Part shown: positions 8,992 to 53,023 of the stretch, one piece after another
How positions within the stretch are numbered: the stretch's first letter is position 1
Layout of the letters: each line of letters starts with the position of its first letter
Source: a virus
DNA length: 64,000 nucleotides
UHGV virus genome: UHGV-1451962
Strand: one strand, 5' to 3'
Position numbers and translations under genes: made by a program
The notes under the pieces: generated by a model
What the model was told of the DNA's origin: nothing
What the model saw: only the letters and a program-made list of their open reading frames with translations
Database searches by the model: none

Positions 8992-9178
8992 AGAAACGTA
9001 AACAATCTCTTCTCGCTAAATTCATTCGTGTTTCAAATTCTTGGCCATTTTTAACTTCATAAATAGCTAACATCATTCTTGCGTATTTATATCTTAAACA
9101 CAAACTGTCAAAAACATATTCTTTAATTTTCATATCTTTTTCTTCAAAAACTTCTTGCAACTTATAAATATCATCCAT
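8942..9178 (-). CDS. hypothetical protein
   Basis: 78-aa ORF with AGGAGAAAA RBS; first gene after conserved upstream element copy A. Confidence 0.4.
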   Translation of the reverse strand: MDDIYKLQEVFEEKDMKIKEYVFDSLCLRYKYARMMLAIYEVKNGQEFETRMNLARRDCLRFFDILRENLLEDKNDSN

Positions 9179-9204
9179 TTTAATTTTTCTCCTATTTACT
9201 TTAA

Positions 9205-9267
9205 AAATTACTAAACTCCATTTTAATTCATCGTCTCCGCGCCGATGAGCTTCCAGCTAAAACTTTC
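9205..9267 (-). promoter_or_regulatory. Conserved ~60-nt upstream element, copy A
   Basis: Minus strand GAAAGTTTTAGCTGG...CGGCGCGGAGACGATGAATTAAAATGGAGTTTAGTAATTT; near-identical copies at 48328 and 54625. Confidence 0.4.
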
Positions 9268-9272
9268 AAAAA

Positions 9273-11009
9273 TCAAAAGAAATAATCTTGATGAGATACA
9301 ATTTCATAATCTTGAATAATTAATTGCGGATTAATGTTCCCGCAATATTCATTTATCTCACACTTACAAAGAATATCTATAATTACACAACCTTGTTCAG
9401 TATATAAGTTATTATATTCTTCTTCTCCTGATTTAAACTTAATTGCTTTTATATTATCTTTTAAATCAATTTTTAATGTAGGATTTCTATCTTTTGCCAT
9501 AAGGTGAAGATTATTTGCAGTTACTCGAATTCCTTTTATAACTATCAAAGCTTCTTCTACGTCTTTTCCCCAAAGATGTTTTAAATTACCAATATCTAAA
9601 ATGTTTTTAGCCAAAATATCAGAATATTGCCATATAAAATCTACTCTATAATCAGGAGTAAATTCCACATTTTTTAATTCTTGATTGCAATAATCTATAA
9701 ATTTCGATAAATTTTCATCTGAAATAGATAAACCATGAGCATTAGCATGTCCTTGCGCCCAATTAATTAAATTAGATTTTTGTTCAAAGGTTTGTAAATC
9801 TTTTAATTGAGATTTTTCATACCCTCTTGCTGAACCTTCCCAAATTATTTTATTGTCTATATTATATTCATTTAAAATAATAACAGGACGCTGGTACTCT
9901 GAAACCAGTCGATTTGCAATTAATCCAGAAATAGATCTATTAATTGGCTCTTCTGGAGTTGATTGAATTATTAAAATTTTATTTTTTAATAAATCTTTTT
10001 CTTCAATTTGATTACTAATAATCTCAATGTTTTCATCTCTAATTTTATTTTGATGATTTTTAATATTATTACTCATTCTAACCGCTTGAGTAACAATTGC
10101 TTCCATTTGTCCTTTGCATCCTCGTTTAGTAGAAGGAATTTGATTTAAAGCTTTCCAATTAAGCATTGCTTCAAATAATATTTTCTTTTCTTCTTTTGTC
10201 CCCAATCTAGCAACTGCATTAATATAAGGTACAATATAAAAAGCAACTCCTATGGATGTAATATTGGTACCTAATTGATAACTATTTTTTTCTACCATTT
10301 CTCGCATAAAAGGATTTTGAATATTTTCTAATCCTTTTCTAGTTAAATAAGATGTTTCTAAATCTCTTAAACTCATAACGTCTCCTGTTAAACCAAGAGA
10401 CACTAAATCAAGAAAATTATCTGCGTAATCGAAGTTAAGTAAATTATCAATATACTTACAAAATTTATATACCATACCTGCACCGGATAATGATTTAGTT
10501 GGATAATCACAGAGTTGATTGTTTATCACACAGGCGAAAGGACTAACTTTATCTGCTTTATGATGGTCAATTACTAAAACATCAATTCCTTTATTGGATA
10601 ATTGTTCATGTATATCATACTCATTACTACTAGAGTCTAAAGCTATAACCAATTTAGTTTCTTGCGGAATTTGGTCTAACCAAATACCATGAGCTTTATG
10701 CGGGTGAAAATCATAAATAATATTTGCTTCTACTATTGATGGAACAATTTTATATAAATAATTTAAAAAAATAGCAGCAGAAGTAAATCCATCATCATCA
10801 TCATCTACAATTAAATAAATTAAATCTTTTCCTAAGTGACGAAAAAGCATTTCTACTCCTTGCTGCATATTATTTATTAAATTTGGATTATAAATAACAG
10901 AATCATTTGGATTCAAATAAGTTTGTATATCTTGAATCCCTCTGTTATTTAAAATTTGTTCCACTATTGATTTATTTGAATCAATAGGATTAATTAATTT
11001 ATAGTTCAT
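9273..11009 (-). CDS. RecJ-like DHH-family single-strand DNA exonuclease
   Basis: DHH phosphoesterase motifs IVDDDDDGFTSAAI and LVIDHHKA. Confidence 0.7.
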   Translation of the reverse strand: MNYKLINPIDSNKSIVEQILNNRGIQDIQTYLNPNDSVIYNPNLINNMQQGVEMLFRHLGKDLIYLIVDDDDDGFTSAAIFLNYLYKIVPSIVEANIIYDFHPHKAHGIWLDQIPQETKLVIALDSSSNEYDIHEQLSNKGIDVLVIDHHKADKVSPFACVINNQLCDYPTKSLSGAGMVYKFCKYIDNLLNFDYADNFLDLVSLGLTGDVMSLRDLETSYLTRKGLENIQNPFMREMVEKNSYQLGTNITSIGVAFYIVPYINAVARLGTKEEKKILFEAMLNWKALNQIPSTKRGCKGQMEAIVTQAVRMSNNIKNHQNKIRDENIEIISNQIEEKDLLKNKILIIQSTPEEPINRSISGLIANRLVSEYQRPVIILNEYNIDNKIIWEGSARGYEKSQLKDLQTFEQKSNLINWAQGHANAHGLSISDENLSKFIDYCNQELKNVEFTPDYRVDFIWQYSDILAKNILDIGNLKHLWGKDVEEALIVIKGIRVTANNLHLMAKDRNPTLKIDLKDNIKAIKFKSGEEEYNNLYTEQGCVIIDILCKCEINEYCGNINPQLIIQDYEIVSHQDYFF

Positions 11010-31777: not shown

Positions 31778-33055
31778 TTAAACCTCCTGTGCTTCTTCCA
31801 TATCGGGCTGGGTTTCAGTATCTTTAACTAGACCTTCAAGAACTTTAAATTCCCAGGTTTTTTGTTTTAATGCAGTAAAAGTACGTCTATTAGCGATTCT
31901 AACCACTACACCTTCTTTAACATGAGTTAAACCAATTGGGTCAACAATATCTTCAAAATATTTGTCAATTTTAGCGAGCAAGTCATCAATAGTAGTAAAC
32001 TCAAAATCCTCAATGATAGGAACACGATTAAAACCATATTCATTGCACCAAGTAGTAATTTCCTCTGGAGAATATTCATATTCACCATTATGAGAAGTAA
32101 TTCTATAAATCCACATTGCAGAATGACCAGGAGTACAACCATAAGAAAAAGTAGTATATTTACCAAACTTTTTCATAAATTTCTTGTCATTGATTTTACT
32201 ATTATCTACAATTGGCATAATAGTTTCATTTTCTTTTGCTCCATACCAACCAACTACTTCATAAAAAACCTCCATACCTTCATTAAGATAAGGTTTCAAA
32301 GCTTCATGGTGACTAAATCTAAATTTGTCATTACCATAATAACCTGCTCCATCAGTGGTAACAACAGTTCTACGAGTACCTAAAACATACTGCAACTTTC
32401 TCTTAGGTTTCATGTGAAATAGCTTTCTAAACCAAGACATAGGATATTCTGCCCAAGTATATGCACTACGTTGGCTAGTACCATGCATTTTAAGGGTTAG
32501 ATTAATTTTATCTCCAGGTCTAAAGATTCCAAGATTATAAGCTAATTGGGCAGTATTAATATGCATGGCAAAATCAGGATACTTAATTCCAGCTGCTTTA
32601 CGACCTTTATAAGAAGTTTTAGGAGTAGTGCGAGGAGTAGCCGAAGGTTTAGGAATATATTTATAACAAAATAGCTTATTATTAATTTCAGTGACTTGAT
32701 CGCCATCTTTCCAATTTTGCTCACCAAAATGCTCAACAATAGTAGAATAAGAAATAACAATACCAGAAGATTCATTACCTCTTAGCTTAATTGCTCTAAT
32801 ATGAGCATTATTTTCCAAATAACCACCTTGTGCGGTACCATCTAAATTCTTGCGGAAAAGCTTAAACTCATCACCAAACCAACGCTCAATAGCTCCATCA
32901 GTAGGAAGATAAAGAACTAATTCATCTTCCTTCATATCAGGGCCTACAATAACTCCTTCTCTAAAACAATCTGCTAAATAGAGTCTATCAGAATTAGGGT
33001 CTTTTCTTACATTTTCAATTTTAGTTACTAAACCATAGTACGCCATAAATGTCAA
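31778..33055 (-). CDS. ATP-dependent RNA ligase (Rnl2-like nucleotidyltransferase) with N-terminal extra domain
   Basis: Motif I LKMHGTS (KxHGT as T4 Rnl2 KIHGTN), motif III EVFYEVVG, motif IV EGVVVRI, motif V KQKTWEFK. Confidence 0.65.
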   Translation of the reverse strand: MTFMAYYGLVTKIENVRKDPNSDRLYLADCFREGVIVGPDMKEDELVLYLPTDGAIERWFGDEFKLFRKNLDGTAQGGYLENNAHIRAIKLRGNESSGIVISYSTIVEHFGEQNWKDGDQVTEINNKLFCYKYIPKPSATPRTTPKTSYKGRKAAGIKYPDFAMHINTAQLAYNLGIFRPGDKINLTLKMHGTSQRSAYTWAEYPMSWFRKLFHMKPKRKLQYVLGTRRTVVTTDGAGYYGNDKFRFSHHEALKPYLNEGMEVFYEVVGWYGAKENETIMPIVDNSKINDKKFMKKFGKYTTFSYGCTPGHSAMWIYRITSHNGEYEYSPEEITTWCNEYGFNRVPIIEDFEFTTIDDLLAKIDKYFEDIVDPIGLTHVKEGVVVRIANRRTFTALKQKTWEFKVLEGLVKDTETQPDMEEAQEV

Positions 33056-46667: not shown

Positions 46668-47900
46668 TTATTCTCCTTCCTTACTTATTATATAATATCC
46701 ATCCTTATATTTTTGAACATATCCGTCCAATAAATATTTTTCAGGAACTTGATGATTAAATTTACCACCTTTAATAATTATTTGCGCGGTTTCATCATCT
46801 ATTTTAAAATTGGATTCTCCGTTAGAATCAAAAGTACCGCCATTAATATAGGTTGTAGCTTTATTTATATTATCATTTAGTTTTCTAACTCTTAGATTAT
46901 AACTTCCATCGTCAATAGAAAAAATACCATCATTGATAGTTAATTCAAAACCATTATGTAAAATAGTTCCGAAAAAGTTACCATTATTTAATATAGCCTT
47001 AGAATTATCATCATTTTTAATAATATAAATTTTACTAATAAAAGTACCGCCATCAATAGTAAGAGAAGGATATTGTTTATTAGTTCCTTCGACATATTGG
47101 GCATTATAATCAGTATAACCATTTTCTATCATACTAGATAAATTGCCAGGAGAGCTAAAAACGCCATCTGTAATATTTAAATCACCATGATTTACTACTA
47201 CATAAAAACCATTGTTTTTTTCATCAATAGATTTAAGATAAGAACCATTCTCAATAATAGTAGTTCCATCATTAGATAACACAGGAGTAGCATGTTTGTT
47301 GCACTCTACTGTTCCTTCACCTTTTAAAGTTACTATTCCATTACTATTTATTGTTATTGGTGTTTTATCATTATTTAAAATATAAGCAGAATTTAAATCT
47401 AAAGAAATTTGTTTATTAATTTCAATAGTAGATAAATTTTTTGTAATAGTAATAGTATCAGTAGGAGAGGCAGCTGCGATTGCTTCTTCTATTGTTGCAT
47501 AATTTTTACCATCAATAGTACAAGAACTTTGCTCCTCAGAAGAATCTTTTATAACTTCTTGAGATGCACTTGCAGGAACCCATTCGCCTTTTGTCTGTAT
47601 ATATAAAACACCTTTAACAATACAAAAAGTATTTTCTTTTACGCTTGCGGGATCCGGTAAAGTTTCTTGCACGCCAGTAAATTTAGCCGCTTCTTCTGGA
47701 AGAACTATATTCTCAGTAATATATTTTAAATCATTATAACGAGTTACACCATCACCAATTTTTAGTTTTCCTGATTCTCCTACTTTTTCAGGATATTCAT
47801 AACAAGGTTCGCCATATCTTAATAATAAATTTTTATTAGATAAAGCAGTTTTAGAACCACGTCTAATTTGGAAAATAGTATTTAAAATAACTTCAGCCAT
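46668..47900 (-). CDS. Tail fibre / receptor-binding protein
   Basis: N-terminus IFQIRRGSKTALSNKNLLLRYGEPCYEYPEKVGESGKLKIGDGVTRYNDLKY matches phage tail-fibre N-terminal domain pattern; Asn/Gly/Thr-rich repetitive body. Confidence 0.55.
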   Translation of the reverse strand: MAEVILNTIFQIRRGSKTALSNKNLLLRYGEPCYEYPEKVGESGKLKIGDGVTRYNDLKYITENIVLPEEAAKFTGVQETLPDPASVKENTFCIVKGVLYIQTKGEWVPASASQEVIKDSSEEQSSCTIDGKNYATIEEAIAAASPTDTITITKNLSTIEINKQISLDLNSAYILNNDKTPITINSNGIVTLKGEGTVECNKHATPVLSNDGTTIIENGSYLKSIDEKNNGFYVVVNHGDLNITDGVFSSPGNLSSMIENGYTDYNAQYVEGTNKQYPSLTIDGGTFISKIYIIKNDDNSKAILNNGNFFGTILHNGFELTINDGIFSIDDGSYNLRVRKLNDNINKATTYINGGTFDSNGESNFKIDDETAQIIIKGGKFNHQVPEKYLLDGYVQKYKDGYYIISKEGE

Positions 47901-47959
47901 TTAATATAATTAACTCCTTTCTTTAAAAAATAGTTAATATATGTAAAATAGAAAAGAAG

Positions 47960-48229
47960 TTAAGTTACTTCTCCACCATCATATATGTAAGTATTGTCAG
48001 GTGAAGGTGAATCTCCGCCACCACTTCCGCCAGAATTTTTTTGTAAAATCCATTCTTTTGAACTATTTAACATATATCTTTCTGAAGTAGAGATAACTAA
48101 AGCTTCACTTCCTGTGGCGTAATTCTTATAATTATCTAAATTAGGTATATCAGCTTTTGTATCACAAAGAAGTCTAATAGTTCCATAAGCTTTTCCACCT
48201 AAATTAAATTTACTATCTATAGTAATCAT
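47960..48229 (-). CDS. hypothetical protein
   Basis: 89 aa, Gly/Ser-rich C-terminus; first gene after conserved upstream element copy B. Confidence 0.4.
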   Translation of the reverse strand: MITIDSKFNLGGKAYGTIRLLCDTKADIPNLDNYKNYATGSEALVISTSERYMLNSSKEWILQKNSGGSGGGDSPSPDNTYIYDGGEVT

Positions 48230-48327
48230 TTAAATTACTCCTTTCTTTTAAAAGTTTAGTTTAAATTTATCCCTTCTATTTTTTTTAAAATTTAAGTAAA
48301 TTCTTAAAATATCTTTGACCAAGAAAA

Positions 48328-48385
48328 AAATTACTAAACTCCATTTTAATTTGCCCGTGTCCGCGCCGGCCTGTTTTCTGCATAA
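48328..48385 (-). promoter_or_regulatory. Conserved ~60-nt upstream element, copy B
   Basis: Minus strand ...GGCCGGCGCGGACACGGGCAAATTAAAATGGAGTTTAGTAATTT; 24-nt core identical to copy A. Confidence 0.4.
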
Positions 48386-48390
48386 AAAAA

Positions 48391-48415
48391 TACCTCAAGT
48401 TTTAAACTTGAGGTA
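48391..48415. terminator. Bidirectional rho-independent terminator hairpin
   Basis: TACCTCAAGTTT/AAACTTGAGGTA flanked by A7 and T5. Confidence 0.55.
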
Positions 48416-48465
48416 TTTTTCAGAAAGGGGGAGTTTTAAAAGTAAGCTACTTAAAATAGCTAAAA

Positions 48466-48541
48466 TGGCAGCGGCAGTTGGATTTGAACCAACGGATATA
48501 CGGGTCAAAGCCGTACGTCTTAACCACTTGACTATGCCGCT
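48466..48541 (-). tRNA. tRNA-Gln (anticodon TTG)
   Basis: Acceptor AGCGGCA/TGCCGCT, anticodon arm TACGG-CTTTGAC-CCGTA, T-arm GTTGGTTCAAATCCAAC, CCA. Confidence 0.75.
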
Positions 48542-48559
48542 ATATCAAGATGCTATTAA

Positions 48560-48680
48560 TAAACCTTATAGAAATATATTTACTATATAGTATTTTAATA
48601 AACTTTATAGAAATATATTTACTATAATATACTATTTTTATAAACCCTATAAAAATATATTTGTAATAATTATTGCTGGA
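48560..48680. repeat. Three ~38-bp imperfect direct repeats (iteron-like)
   Basis: aaccttatagaaatatatttactata... repeated three times. Confidence 0.5.
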
Positions 48681-48886
48681 AGCATCTTATAAAGAAGAAA
48701 GAAAGGATAAAATAAGAAAAAACTAGACACAAAAAATTTCTTGTAAGTCTCATTATATTAAAGAAATTTTCACAAAAGATAATATAAATCATTGACATAC
48801 TTTTTCATTAAATGGAGCTGTTAATAGGGCCACAGCAAGCCGCAAATTATAATATCAGTATTATAAAATTGCTGTATGTGTCTAAA

Positions 48887-48962
48887 TGGTAGAAAATGTC
48901 AGATTTGAACTGCGACTCTAGCTCCCAAAGCTAGCGTGTTACCAGATTACACTACATTCTCT
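48887..48962 (-). tRNA. tRNA-Pro (anticodon TGG), irregular T-stem
   Basis: Acceptor AGAGAAT/ATTTTCT, anticodon arm CTAGC-TTTGGGA-GCTAG, T-loop TTCAAAT, CCA. Confidence 0.6.
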
Positions 48963-49056
48963 TGGCGGAAACGGTGGGTGCCGACCCCACTCGCCTATTT
49001 TCATAGACCTAACGGTTTAGCAAACCGTCCTCTTTGCCAACATTGAGTACATTTCC
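48963..49056 (-). tRNA. tRNA-Ser (anticodon GCT), class II, non-canonical T-loop
   Basis: Acceptor GGAAATG/CGTTTCC, anticodon arm ACGGT-TTGCTAA-ACCGT, variable-arm hairpin with GAAA loop, T-arm GTGGG-GTCGGCA-CCCAC, CCA. Confidence 0.55.
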
Positions 49057-49175
49057 ATATAAATTAGAAATAATTATCTATCACTAATAGTAATTACTTC
49101 ATCAGAAAAAATCATATCATCCAAATCCATAAGGCAGCTCTCCTTTCTATATTTAATTTTTGCTAGACTCTTTTA

Positions 49176-49250
49176 AACCAGAAATGGGAATCGAACCCAT
49201 ATTTTTACCTTTTCAAGGGTAATGTCTTAACCTTTTGACTATTTCAGAAT
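49176..49250 (-). tRNA. Atypical tRNA-like element (possible pseudo-tRNA or expanded-anticodon-loop tRNA)
   Basis: Canonical T-arm ATGGGTTCGATTCCCAT but apparent 8-nt anticodon loop CTTGAAAA on TTACC/GGTAA stem, poorly paired acceptor, no CCA. Confidence 0.35.
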
Positions 49251-49278
49251 TAAAGAATTTTTGCTGTATGAGTCTATA

Positions 49279-49352
49279 TGGATGCAGACTTTGGAATCGA
49301 ACCAAAATAACTTAGCTTATGAGACTAAGCGGAGAACCAACTCTGCCTGCAA
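49279..49352 (-). tRNA. tRNA-Met/Ile (anticodon CAT), short D-arm
   Basis: Acceptor TGCAGGC/GTCTGCA, anticodon arm TTAGT-CTCATAA-GCTAA, T-arm TTTGGTTCGATTCCAAA, CCA. Confidence 0.6.
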
Positions 49353-49430
49353 TATATAAACAAGACACTTGTATTAAAATTTTATGCCATTTTTTATTAT
49401 AAAATAAATTGCTGTATGTGTCTTTTGTTA

Positions 49431-49506
49431 TGGTACTCCTAGCGGGCTACGATCCCGCGACTCTAGCTTGAAGGGCTAGCGACTTAGCCTACTTGTCGAT
49501 AGGAGC
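49431..49506 (-). tRNA. tRNA-Glu (anticodon TTC), variant T-loop
   Basis: Acceptor GCTCCTA/TAGGAGT, anticodon arm CTAGC-CCTTCAA-GCTAG, T-arm GCGGG-ATCGTAG-CCCGC, CCA. Confidence 0.6.
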
Positions 49507-49517
49507 TAATTAATATA

Positions 49518-49594
49518 TGGCGGATCCAGTTCGACTTGAACGAACAACCCACGGATTAACAGTCCGTTGCGCTAACCAATTACGCTATGGATCC
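49518..49594 (-). tRNA. tRNA-Asn (anticodon GTT)
   Basis: Acceptor GGATCCA/TGGATCC, anticodon arm ACGGA-CTGTTAA-TCCGT, T-arm GTTCGTTCAAGTCGAAC, CCA. Confidence 0.75.
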
Positions 49595-49789
49595 AAATTT
49601 CTTTTTTCTTTTAAAGGAACCTTTACCCTTTTTAGGTTTTACTTTACTACCTCTGCGGCGAAACTGCAAATACTCTTGAAGTTCATCGCCATTCTTTTTC
49701 GCCCATAAATTCTTGTTCTTCTGTTTCTTCATAATCATTCTCCTGATTGGTAACACTACCAACTTCATCAGATTGAATCTCGCAATCAA
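49580..49789 (-). CDS. hypothetical small Lys/Arg-rich protein (first gene of tRNA array 2 transcript)
   Basis: 69-aa ORF, about one-third K/R, preceded by consensus promoter; 3' end overlaps tRNA-Asn by ~15 nt. Confidence 0.35.
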   Translation of the reverse strand: MIARFNLMKLVVLPIRRMIMKKQKNKNLWAKKNGDELQEYLQFRRRGSKVKPKKGKGSFKRKKKFGSIA

Positions 49790-49834
49790 AGGAATCCCAG
49801 TAAAACATTAAATCAACCTCAACTTTCTATAAAT

Positions 49835-49863
49835 ATTATATCATAAAATTTTTAATTTTTCAA
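49835..49863 (-). promoter_or_regulatory. Sigma-70-type promoter (TTGAAA-N17-TGnTATAAT)
   Basis: Reverse complement TTGAAA, 17 nt, TGATATAAT. Confidence 0.55.
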
Positions 49864-49927
49864 ATTGAGATTTACTAGACAGTTTTAAACAAAATAAATA
49901 CCTTACCAATAGGCTACTTTACAGACT

Positions 49928-49961
49928 TGTAAAGACAGGAATCGAACCTGCATGTCATTAC
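49928..49961 (-). ncRNA. tRNA minihelix-like element (acceptor stem plus T-arm only)
   Basis: Minus strand GTAATGA-CATG-CAGGTTCGATTCCTG-TCTTTAC: canonical T-arm between 7-nt complementary arms, no D or anticodon arm. Confidence 0.3.
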
Positions 49962-49989
49962 TTATATAAATATTGCTGTGTCTGTCTAA

Positions 49990-50071
49990 TGGTGTTGGAT
50001 AAGAGACTCGAACTCTTACGCTTGTGCGGTAGCTTCTAAGGCTACTATGTCTACCATTCCATCAATCCAAC
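49990..50071 (-). tRNA. tRNA-Leu (anticodon TAG), class II
   Basis: Acceptor GTTGGAT/ATCCAAC, anticodon arm GTAGC-CTTAGAA-GCTAC, long variable arm, T-arm GAGTTCGAGTCTC, CCA. Confidence 0.7.
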
Positions 50072-50140
50072 ATTTCTTTGGTTAATCTTATATAAATATT
50101 ATATCATATTTATTAATTAAAGTCAACCAAAAATTTTTAA

Positions 50141-50170
50141 CGGTTTTAATTTCTTTAAGACCGCGAACTT
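50141..50170. repeat. Direct repeat flanking tRNA(TAA), copy 1
   Basis: cggttttaatttctttaagaccgcgaactt, resembling copy at 50281. Confidence 0.4.
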
Positions 50171-50197
50171 AAAATTAAATCGCACAATATTCTGCGC

Positions 50198-50276
50198 TGG
50201 TAGCACTGATGGGACTCGAACCCACACTGAATAGATTTTAAGTCTACTGCCTGCTTCCAATTGGGCTACAGTGCCA
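50198..50276 (-). tRNA. Class I tRNA with anticodon TAA (short variable arm; identity uncertain)
   Basis: Acceptor GGCACTG/CAGTGCT, anticodon arm GTAGA-CTTAAAA-TCTAT, 5-nt variable loop, T-arm GTGGGTTCGAGTCCCAT, CCA. Confidence 0.55.
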
Positions 50277-50280
50277 TATG

Positions 50281-50310
50281 CGGTTTTACAATTTAGACCG
50301 CAAACTAAAA
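50281..50310. repeat. Direct repeat flanking tRNA(TAA), copy 2
   Basis: cggttttacaatttagaccgcaaactaaaa. Confidence 0.4.
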
Positions 50311-50506
50311 GATATAATTTAAAAGTTAATATAAAAGTGAAAAAGTTTTAGTTAATAACATTGATACTCGGTTGCCTAAAAGTAATTCCACGTGATTTTC
50401 TATCACTCTTTCTAAATGTAAATCAAACGTTGATTGTAGCAAAGGGAGGGATTCAAATGACGCAACATTTAAATACATCAAACTTTTATTACATTTAAAT
50501 TATTAA

Positions 50507-50582
50507 TGGTAGTGCTGTTGGGATTTGAACCCACGTCTAGCGATTATAAGTCACTGGCTCTAACCTACTGAGCTACAACACT
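50507..50582 (-). tRNA. tRNA-Ile (anticodon TAT)
   Basis: Acceptor AGTGTTG/CAGCACT, D-arm GCTCAGTAGGTTAGAGC, anticodon arm AGTGA-CTTATAA-TCGCT, T-loop TTCAAAT, CCA. Confidence 0.7.
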
Positions 50583-50814
50583 ATATAAGGTTCTTTTTCG
50601 ATTTTAGAAGTCACCAATCATTGAACCTTAGTATTTATGTTTCGCTCTTCAGCGAAAGGTGTTTTATCTTCTTGGTTAAGCCGTAGCCTTGTGACCCATC
50701 CGTGAACCTCACCTATGAACCTTCTTTTTAAGAGTGAAGTTTAGGTAGTAATATCTCTCAAGTAATTTTGATTGGTTAGTATAGAAAATATTGTATTTCT
50801 TATTTTCTATTAAT

Positions 50815-50843
50815 ATTATATCATAATTTTTTTATAAAATCAA
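50815..50843 (-). promoter_or_regulatory. Sigma-70-type promoter (TTGATT-N17-TGnTATAAT)
   Basis: Reverse complement TTGATT, 17 nt, TGATATAAT; ~230-nt structured leader precedes tRNA-Ile. Confidence 0.5.
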
Positions 50844-51152
50844 TTAATCAACAATGCCCAGAGTTTCCTTTAATCTTTTGATTGTCTCAGCATCTTCATC
50901 ACTAATTTCCGCAGTCTTAACTTCCTTCTCAGTCCAATCATTTGGATTACCAGTGGTAATATTTCGATTAGTAGAACCACCAGTAACAGGTGTCTTTGGC
51001 ATTGTCAAACTAATAGCGAATTGAATAGTTTCGCCACCTTCATGACCATTCACATAAATCTTCTTATTGTCAATACAGCAGAAATCATCACCAAAAACAT
51101 CAACAATCTTCTGCATTACCTGTTCTCTTGCTTTGTCACCACGTCTAGCCAT
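50844..51152 (-). CDS. hypothetical protein
   Basis: 102-aa ORF after promoter 51185. Confidence 0.45.
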   Translation of the reverse strand: MARRGDKAREQVMQKIVDVFGDDFCCIDNKKIYVNGHEGGETIQFAISLTMPKTPVTGGSTNRNITTGNPNDWTEKEVKTAEISDEDAETIKRLKETLGIVD

Positions 51153-51184
51153 TATTTTTATTCCTTTCTTAACTTTGTATATAT

Positions 51185-51213
51185 ATTATATCATTTATTT
51201 TTTAAATTTTCAA
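51185..51213 (-). promoter_or_regulatory. Sigma-70-type promoter (TTGAAA-N17-TGnTATAAT)
   Basis: Reverse complement TTGAAA, 17 nt, TGATATAAT. Confidence 0.55.
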
Positions 51214-51214
51214 A

Positions 51215-51520
51215 TTAATTTTCTTTTAAATCAATAATCTCAAAATAAGACTTATCAACAACAAATTCATTAACTAAAAAATTTACTACCTTTTCAGCTT
51301 CTTCTTTAGAAGAAAAATGTTTTGCACAACTAAAAATAGTTATTATATCGTGAAAATTTTTACCAATATAATTATCTAAAAATTTAATAACATAATCTTT
51401 TTCATATTCTTTAAAAAGAAACTCTGGAGATTTTTCTAATATGACAAAAGTATTATAATAAGGATCATAAAGAAGATAATCATTAATCAAAAGACGATAC
51501 TCTACTCCATTAATATTCAA
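51215..51520 (-). CDS. hypothetical protein (TTG start per ORF track)
   Basis: 101-aa ORF; frame stays open upstream to TAA at 51581-51583 without an ATG. Confidence 0.4.
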   Translation of the reverse strand: MNINGVEYRLLINDYLLYDPYYNTFVILEKSPEFLFKEYEKDYVIKFLDNYIGKNFHDIITIFSCAKHFSSKEEAEKVVNFLVNEFVVDKSYFEIIDLKEN

Positions 51521-51701
51521 AATAATTTTATTACTTTCATTATTATCAGCAATATAATAATCAATATCTGAAACATTTGATTAATAAAATCTTTTAAATA
51601 AAAAATGGCTGAAATTTTAACCAAAATATAATGCCATTTAAAACTTTTACTTCATGCTCTTTTACAGTCATATTTTATTCCTTTCTTAATTTTTTAAATA
51701 T

Positions 51702-51730
51702 ATTATAATATATTTTTATTAAAAATTCAA
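51702..51730 (-). promoter_or_regulatory. Sigma-70-type promoter (TTGAAT-N17-TATAAT)
   Basis: Reverse complement TTGAAT, 17 nt, TATAAT. Confidence 0.45.
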
Positions 51731-53023
51731 TTGACGTTCAAATGATTTAATTTCTCGCCAACAAGAATTACAATAAATACCCTCTTCTTCTTGTCTATAA
51801 CTTTGTTTATCTTCTAAATTTATTCTTTTTCCACAACAAGAGCAAATTGGATATAAATTTCCTTCAGCATTATATTTTTCTGCACAAGTATCACAAATAA
51901 AGCTCGCCGAATTATTTACTTTTCTGCCACATCCACAAGTGCAAGCAACAGGATAACCAATTTTAGTTAAAAATAAATCTATTGTCTTTTGCTTATCTTT
52001 GCTATAATAATATTTATATTTTTTGTTAATACTAACTTGTGTTTGATGAAATGAAGAATATACAATATCATTATAATTCAACGAATTTTCTGGAATATCA
52101 ATTAATTCTAAAGTATCAAAAACTTTATTATTTAATGCCATATAATTATGGTCTAAATCAATACAATTATCTTGATTTAAATTAATTTGGTCAAAAGTAA
52201 CTTCTTTAGGAGGCATAAAATCTCTATCATAAAATAATTTATTATAAACTAAATCTAATAAATTTTTATTATAAGAAGGGTATTGTCTTCCATAATAAAT
52301 TATATTATCATTTTGATTTATATGAATTAACATTCTCCATTTTTTATTATAAACTTTAATAAATTTTGGTAAACAATCTACATTGATTTTTTCTTCATTT
52401 GCTAAAAATACAATAATAGTAGATGGATCATTCATATAACTAATATTTCCTGCACGATAATCACCGTCTAATGAATGACAAGAACGCCAATTGCAATTAT
52501 TCTCACTAGAAGTTAAAAATTCAAATGGATCAATAGAAGCAAATAAATACCCAGAAATTTTTTGTGTTTGAATTAACTCACTTGCCATATCCTGGATTTT
52601 TCTAAGCTTTTGTTTATCTTTAACAAAATACTTAAAAGATTTAATAATTTTACTTCCACGTTTTACAATATTTAAAAAATCTGAAGTAACAATATTAGAA
52701 TAAAAATTATTTACATTATCACTAAGAAAATCATAAAAATTATAATATAGTTCTACTTCACTATCTGGAGCATCTTCAGATGGTTCCAGCAAATTCATAA
52801 CTTTATCAATAAATTCAAAAAAACTATCTCTTCTAAAGGTTTCATCAAGAGTAATAGATACTGGTTCATCAGTTAATTGTAAAGTAATTTTTTCGTTCAA
52901 ATATTCTTTATTCAATTTAGCTTTATTAATTTCCCAAGAAGTAATTATTTCTTCACAGTCAAGAGGAAAAGAATAATTTTGAGAATATTTAATTGCCGCT
53001 TCCAGTGATTTCTGTAAATTCAA
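51719..53023 (-). CDS. Large zinc-ribbon protein, paralogue of ORF 55129..56784, function unknown
   Basis: 434 aa; shared core KISGYL..SIDPF...NCNWRSCHSLDGDYRAG...KKWRMLIHI; C-terminal CTCGCG...CDTC...CSCCG...CNSC. Confidence 0.6.
   Translation of the reverse strand: MNLQKSLEAAIKYSQNYSFPLDCEEIITSWEINKAKLNKEYLNEKITLQLTDEPVSITLDETFRRDSFFEFIDKVMNLLEPSEDAPDSEVELYYNFYDFLSDNVNNFYSNIVTSDFLNIVKRGSKIIKSFKYFVKDKQKLRKIQDMASELIQTQKISGYLFASIDPFEFLTSSENNCNWRSCHSLDGDYRAGNISYMNDPSTIIVFLANEEKINVDCLPKFIKVYNKKWRMLIHINQNDNIIYYGRQYPSYNKNLLDLVYNKLFYDRDFMPPKEVTFDQINLNQDNCIDLDHNYMALNNKVFDTLELIDIPENSLNYNDIVYSSFHQTQVSINKKYKYYYSKDKQKTIDLFLTKIGYPVACTCGCGRKVNNSASFICDTCAEKYNAEGNLYPICSCCGKRINLEDKQSYRQEEEGIYCNSCWREIKSFERQLNF

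Follow-up and report, generated by a model that had tools for sequence, protein, structure and literature searches.

The spacers between the tRNAs of polycistronic tRNA operons are removed by RNase P together with 3'-end processing. The tRNA cluster of phage T4 also encodes small stable RNAs, the species 1 and 2 RNAs. In Staphylococcus aureus, sRNAs bind Shine-Dalgarno (SD) regions through unpaired UCCC motifs (PMC2790875). The locus examined here is a spacer between two phage tRNA genes whose complementary strand carries a strong SD-like sequence and a 13-codon ORF. With a probability of roughly 85%, the micro-ORF and its SD arose by chance, antisense to the spacer of a dicistronic tRNA transcript read from the minus strand.

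The window, meaning the whole 64,000-nt stretch of DNA that was analysed, has a GC content of 29%. The phage appears to be a large one of about 135 kb, virulent-type or distantly SPbeta-like, and its genes include those for a PolC/DnaE-like DNA polymerase (38.7% identical to SPbeta YorL), topoisomerase II, NrdD, RNA ligase and helicases. The credible ORFs and 17/17 tRNAs are all on the minus strand, and ORFs of at least 120 aa are minus-strand with the exception of two antisense ones. The sequence-only reading had placed the micro-ORF in a region otherwise transcribed from the minus strand, which holds as far as gene orientation can tell.

The plus strand reads AAAGGGAGGGATTCAAATG at 50441-50459. 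The frame opens with ATG at 50457, runs to ATT at 50495 and closes with TAA at 50496-50498, giving the 13-codon product MTQHLNTSNFYYI. The SD and ORF are present as first described, although the end coordinate given then, 50497, falls one base short of the stop codon. Upstream the same frame stays open as far as a TTG at 50361 (45 aa). GGAGG is separated from the ATG by 7 nt, and its predicted pairing with a Firmicutes-type anti-SD (−12.4 kcal/mol) ranks first among 583 plus-strand ATGs. An SD, a start, an in-frame stop and proper spacing are all present.

Table 1. Features of the two-tRNA unit, of the plus-strand pattern and of other elements mentioned in the text. Positions refer to the window unless a related locus (L) is named.
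Feature	Position	Strand	Remarks
Promoter of the tRNA-Ile/tRNA-Leu operon, TTGATT-17 nt-TATAAT preceded by TG	50815..50843	-	identical across related loci; one of 19 minus-strand TGNTATAAT
Leader, ~230 nt upstream of tRNA-Ile; no known RNA family	50583..50814	-	fold z = −2.0; aligned across relatives
tRNA-Ile(UAU), CCA encoded	50507..50582	-	ARAGORN; Rfam tRNA 60.6 bits
Inter-tRNA spacer, 231 nt, holds the micro-ORF	50276..50506	-	bounded by tRNA-Ile(UAU) and tRNA-Leu(UAA)
Spacer core, 178 nt, AGTTTG direct repeats at flanks	50303..50480	-	absent in L011; most variable segment of the neighbourhood
Weak predicted hairpin, CCCUCCC (50444-50450) in apical loop	50415..50479	-	−10.4 kcal/mol, z = −2.0; two compensatory pairs
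50-codon ORF (MYLNVASFESLPLLQ...; MYLNVASFESLPLLQSTFDLHLERVIENHVELLLGNRVSMLLTKTFSLLY)	50326..50478	-	tested as gene, unsupported
Hairpin UGCGGU-12 nt-ACCGCA, invariant stem, 3 nt before tRNA-Leu	50279..50302	-	kept in L011
tRNA-Leu(UAA), short variable region, CCA encoded	50198..50275	-	ARAGORN; Rfam 57.1 bits
Terminator-like hairpin and T-run, end of two-tRNA unit	50182..50197	-	promoter/terminator scan
Second hairpin of the pair around tRNA-Leu(UAA)	50141..50170	-	
Next promoter after two-tRNA unit	50098..50126	-	promoter scan
SD-like AAAGGGAGGG	50441..50450	+	complement of CCCUCCC tract in minus-strand transcript
Micro-ORF MTQHLNTSNFYYI and stop, 13 codons	50457..50498	+	judged coincidental
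116-nt element directly after tRNA-Leu(UAG)	49873..49988	-	long terminal stem; tRNA T-arm-like hairpin CAGGUUCGAUUCCUG
tRNA with 8-nt anticodon loop	49175..49250	-	called with four-base anticodon 'tgaa'
GC-richer gap in first tRNA array, 375 nt	40015..40390	-	no Rfam match
GC-richer gap in first tRNA array, 185 nt	40829..41013	-	no Rfam match
507-aa DUF2828+DUF7788 protein	38351..39874	-	phrog_850 'RNA-binding protein', E = 8e-113
Phage RNA ligase gene	31778..33055		
Split tRNA-Ile(UAU)	L003:6571-7132		486-nt insert
Split tRNA-Leu(UAA)	L032:695-1548		also in L033
Further homing-endonuclease-type ORFs	L002:8133-8765, L003:8607-9068, L005:8135-8647 and 9061-9471, L032:3684-4094		

The unit is laid out in the order promoter, leader, tRNA, spacer, tRNA, so the micro-ORF lies in an inter-tRNA spacer and not in a leader in the strict sense. 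The earlier placement inside the tRNA leader was imprecise. The tRNAs on either side are co-oriented, and the scan found no strong-type phage promoter or terminator between them (50276-50506). Strong promoters of the form TTGAAA-17-TGATATAAT occur at 51213, 50843, 50126 and 49863, and all four of these sites near the micro-ORF are on the minus strand. Extended −10 sites matching TGNTATAAT are divided 19/25 in favour of the minus strand, and the plus strand has none from 46575 to 52000; the nearest one upstream on the plus strand is 3.9 kb from the micro-ORF and within a gene. A consensus scan detected no plus-strand promoter-like site in 48633-51002, and none within 1.8 kb upstream of the micro-ORF. 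Nor does the 64 kb contain a credible plus-strand gene for the micro-ORF to regulate.

Several observations were made on this unit in passing. The 19 minus-strand extended −10 sites (9.4 expected over both strands) read TGATATAAT in most cases, many have TTGAAA 17 nt upstream, and together they form a highly uniform set of phage promoters. The leader is GC-richer than its surroundings and contains several hairpins; it has no Rfam match, and in L003 it carries a 13-nt deletion. tRNA-Leu(UAA) lies between two similar hairpins (GCGGUCU...AAAACCG), one of them between the spacer core and the tRNA; these hairpins may represent a processing or recombination signal.

The SD-ATG combination was compared with first-order Markov strands of matched composition and 64 kb in length. 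GGAGG occurs 10 times on the plus strand of the window and is followed by an ATG at 4-10 nt in 1/10 cases, against 0.70 expected (P(≥1) = 0.5). Of the random composition-matched strands, 22% have a best SD-ATG that equals or surpasses −12.4 kcal/mol in strength. On the minus (coding) strand, ATG follows 18/35 GGAGG sites, and nine ATGs have SD pairing of at least the strength seen at the micro-ORF. SD use by the phage is genuine, but on the minus strand, and the SD-ATG pattern of the micro-ORF is not beyond chance.

Relatives were collected through the neighbouring 102-aa protein, which is unchanged on many metagenome contigs, together with two look-ups and one pattern scan, yielding at least 15 distinct contigs. 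These are metagenome assemblies of up to 137 kb whose sample names point to gut cohorts. The aligned spacer set consists of 10 distinct haplotypes that are 88-97% identical, a closeness that limits the power of conservation tests. More distant relatives (L012-L023), whose 102-aa protein homologues are about 50% identical, have a different tRNA set and lack a homologous spacer, so they could not be used to extend the comparison.

The micro-ORF is not maintained in these relatives. Its product is MTQHLNTSNFYYI in the window and L008, most other haplotypes carry N6Y through two adjacent substitutions, and L024 has T2K and I13V. In L005 codon 3 is changed from CAA to the stop codon TAA, and in L002 the ATG has become ATA; in both the SD has changed from GGGAGGG to GAGAGGG. 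The SD and ATG are thus intact in 8/10 spacer-bearing haplotypes. No synonymous change was observed among the aligned haplotypes, the remaining changes (N6Y, T2K, I13V) all being nonsynonymous. The block UUUGAAUCCCUC is invariant in 10/10 spacer-bearing haplotypes, although runs of that length are common in the alignment.

Three relatives lack the micro-ORF segment altogether. The L011 spacer is only 53 nt long, the central 178 nt (50480-50303) being missing between AGTTTG/AGTTCG microhomologies. In L032 and L033 a 13-nt linker takes the place of the whole spacer, and the tRNA-Leu(UAA) after it is a different one that is split. Where the 178-nt core is present, 22.5% of its columns are variable and the mean pairwise difference is 6.2%. 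The corresponding values are 11.3% and 3.5% for the 102-aa gene, 11.1% and 2.6% for the promoter and leader, and 1.3-2.6% and 0.3-0.9% for the tRNAs. The core is therefore weakly constrained relative to the flanking tRNAs as well as dispensable, and it is the most variable and least constrained segment of the neighbourhood.

The preferred reading, a chance pattern in a tRNA-operon spacer, draws its basis from the anatomy, the chance expectation, the non-conservation and the dispensability described above. Co-transcription, processing and degradation of the spacer we infer from what is generally known of tRNA operons in bacteria and phages. The spacer would be transcribed within a two-tRNA precursor that extends from the promoter at 50843-50815 to the terminator-like hairpin at 50197-50182. 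RNase P cleavage 5' of tRNA-Leu and trimming of the CCA-encoded tRNA-Ile 3' end would then remove it, and the excised RNA would be degraded. The G-rich plus-strand "SD" would be the mere complement of a C-rich tract in the spacer RNA. Because the pattern is at chance level, lacks both a nearby promoter and a downstream gene on the plus strand and is lost in some relatives, function of the micro-ORF is unsupported, and the original suggestion that it may be coincidental is the one favoured.

Homologues of the spacer were sought in several collections. Rfam, searched in E-value mode over 47900-51300 and at the gathering threshold over the whole window, gave no accepted spacer match. No spacer-like DNA was detected in phage records by megablast or blastn, no exact spacer pattern in IMG/VR, no degenerate spacer pattern in genome contigs and no paralogous spacer copy within the window. 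Searches with the neighbouring proteins returned no relatives from viral contigs or genome contigs. A metagenome pattern scan anchored on the tRNA-Ile 3' end led to one locus, L011.

Other identities for the spacer were considered and rejected. The sole Rfam match at E≤10 that overlaps it, snoR31, scored 20.8 bits (E = 5), below the gathering score of 44, and was taken as chance. For a decayed homing-endonuclease or other gene, blastx against ORFs of at least 40 aa from 34 loci gave self-matches only. For a degenerate tRNA, there was no Rfam tRNA match at E≤10, and relaxed ARAGORN settings produced only spurious calls overlapping real tRNAs.

The rival that survives best takes the minus-strand spacer RNA to be a functional sRNA derived from the tRNA precursor, whose CCCUCCC loop would pair with mRNA SDs and block initiation, much as RsaE/RoxS or RNAIII do. 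The hairpin at 50479-50415 is minus-strand specific in predicted folds (z = −2.0 vs −0.2 on the plus strand), and its loop contains UCCCUCCC, predicted to be unpaired. Compensatory change is seen at two stem pairs (36-83 and 41-78), paired cells amount to 98.8%, and UCCC is invariant across 10 haplotypes. The phage and its presumed host use SDs, as the minus-strand GGAGG sites indicate. However, the covariation is not significant, since its score was reached by 32/500 shuffles, among sequences so similar that they give the test little power. Most one-sided changes in the hairpin preserve pairing, but they divide into about 8 G.U and 5 A.C by hand count, near the 50:50 of neutral change. In L005 the hairpin no longer forms the MFE fold, and the loop has changed to CCCUCUC in L005 and L002. 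The fold of the whole spacer (−41.6 kcal/mol, z = −2.4) has an equal z on the plus strand. The spacer RNA has neither a promoter nor a terminator of its own, no match in Rfam, phage records or genome contigs, and a core that is absent in L011, replaced in L032/L033 and more variable than anything nearby. Among the features of UCCC-loop sRNAs it shows only the motif, a C-rich loop unpaired in the predicted fold. We therefore consider a regulatory spacer RNA very unlikely.

An elaboration that we find more doubtful still makes the 178-nt core an accessory RNA module gained by some strains. Once released by RNase P and 3' trimming, its CCCUCCC anti-SD mimic would sequester host or phage SDs. If true, the core would be a translational repressor sRNA embedded in the tRNA operon of a gut phage. 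A mobile element was also considered for the core and rejected, as its flanking 6-nt direct repeats (AGTTTG) fit microhomology deletion as well as insertion and terminal inverted repeats are lacking.

A slimmer prospect again is that the spacer encodes a 50-aa minus-strand protein (50478..50326) and that the 178-nt indel is a small gene cassette. This ORF is co-oriented with all genes, is open in most haplotypes, including L002 despite about 25 substitutions, and begins 2 nt downstream of the point where the L011 indel starts. Its 33 variable sites are nevertheless spread 10/12/11 over codon positions 1/2/3 (a hand count from the alignment), and this even spread means that a signature of purifying selection is absent. 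No SD precedes it (UAAAAGUUUGAUG), though the phage uses strong SDs, and a 1-nt deletion in L003/L006 alters the final 7 residues. Gene callers annotated it on 0 contigs, Pfam and PHROG yielded nothing at E≤1, and no ORF of the related loci resembles it.

Least credible of all is that the 13-codon frame would be translated as a small antisense or leader peptide, the other option raised by the sequence-only reading: its SD is near-ideal and the strongest on the plus strand, but among close relatives the start, the frame and the SD are each lost in some and the whole segment in others, and three of the four defining features of such a peptide are lacking.

The micro-ORF is a worked negative, in which population data argue against function. 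A textbook-quality SD-ATG on the non-coding strand of an AT-rich phage arises about once per 64 kb by chance. The tRNA island around it is a useful by-product, a hot spot of allelic turnover, and the split tRNA alleles of the relatives are of more interest than the micro-ORF itself.

In L003 a 486-nt insert sits precisely between U36 and A37 of tRNA-Ile(UAU), and the same split occurs in L006, L007, L010, L011, L024, L033 and L034. The insert encodes a 147-aa PD-(D/E)XK endonuclease (PF11645, E = 1.8e-30) of the I-Ssp6803I type (PMC3424549). Only about 42 nt of it are non-coding, so a separate group I ribozyme would not fit, and its ends (UUACGUU...AACGUAA) are complementary. The tRNA-Ile is either inactivated by a free-standing homing-endonuclease gene or spliced by an unknown route. 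The phage has an RNA ligase gene (Table 1).

The alternative allele at the micro-ORF site in L032 and L033 is a tRNA-Leu(UAA) with a long variable arm. Its anticodon loop is interrupted by some 770 nt of intervening sequence, whose last base is G and which carries a 173-aa HNH-motif ORF. The break was placed by hand at U34/A35, without an uninterrupted allele, and by the intron mode of ARAGORN at 37/38 (intron of 764 nt). U34/A35 is the classic tRNA-Leu group I intron position. Neither split-tRNA insert of the relatives matched the Rfam group I intron (Intron_gpI). Further homing-endonuclease-type ORFs (GIY-YIG and a second PDDEXK_5 of 136 aa) are found between or inside island tRNAs in some strains, and in L005 tRNA-Ser(GCU) is uncalled where the 136-aa ORF sits. 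Endonuclease ORFs among the tRNAs and the uncalled tRNA-Ser(GCU) mark the whole tRNA island as a homing-endonuclease hot spot.

Other RNA elements of the window were also recorded. The 116-nt element after tRNA-Leu(UAG) has a sub-threshold match to YrlA (Y RNA-like; 30.2 bits, E = 9e-4), and L032 gives this match again at 26.4 bits. The 507-aa DUF2828+DUF7788 protein, for which no PDB sequence match was obtained, is encoded about 10 kb from the element; the two may be a phage Ro/Y-RNA-like pair. The tRNA with the four-base anticodon may resemble frameshift suppressors or be a copy in decay; its counterpart in L024 and L032 is called tRNA-Leu(taa) with a normal loop. In each of the two long GC-richer gaps of the first tRNA array a CCUCC tract precedes the next tRNA by 10-25 nt; the gaps may be unannotated structured RNAs.

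In comparison with known systems, the micro-ORF resembles SD-led small ORFs and leader peptides in its SD, 7-nt spacing, ATG and in-frame stop. Unlike leader peptides, it opposes the only transcription in evidence, lacks a downstream gene to regulate and is conserved in neither start nor frame. The spacer resembles the Firmicutes C-rich-loop sRNAs (RsaE/RoxS and the RNAIII hairpins; PMC2790875) in having UCCCUCCC, which is SD-complementary, in a predicted apical loop on the transcribed strand. It differs from them in having no promoter or terminator of its own, no significant covariation and no homologues beyond the phage lineage, and in being dispensable. Like the T4 species 1 and 2 RNAs, the spacer is a non-tRNA segment presumably co-transcribed with tRNAs; unlike them, it has no tRNA-like 3' end, no sequence relation to them and no sign of stability. 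At 231 nt it is a long tRNA spacer by phage standards, the gaps between adjacent tRNAs of the same arrays measuring 0-120 nt, and its processing is one that we infer here. In other respects it corresponds to the spacers of polycistronic bacterial and phage tRNA operons such as the T4 cluster. It lies between co-oriented tRNAs served by one promoter and one terminator-like hairpin, its sequence is much more variable than theirs, and among relatives it is variable in length or missing.
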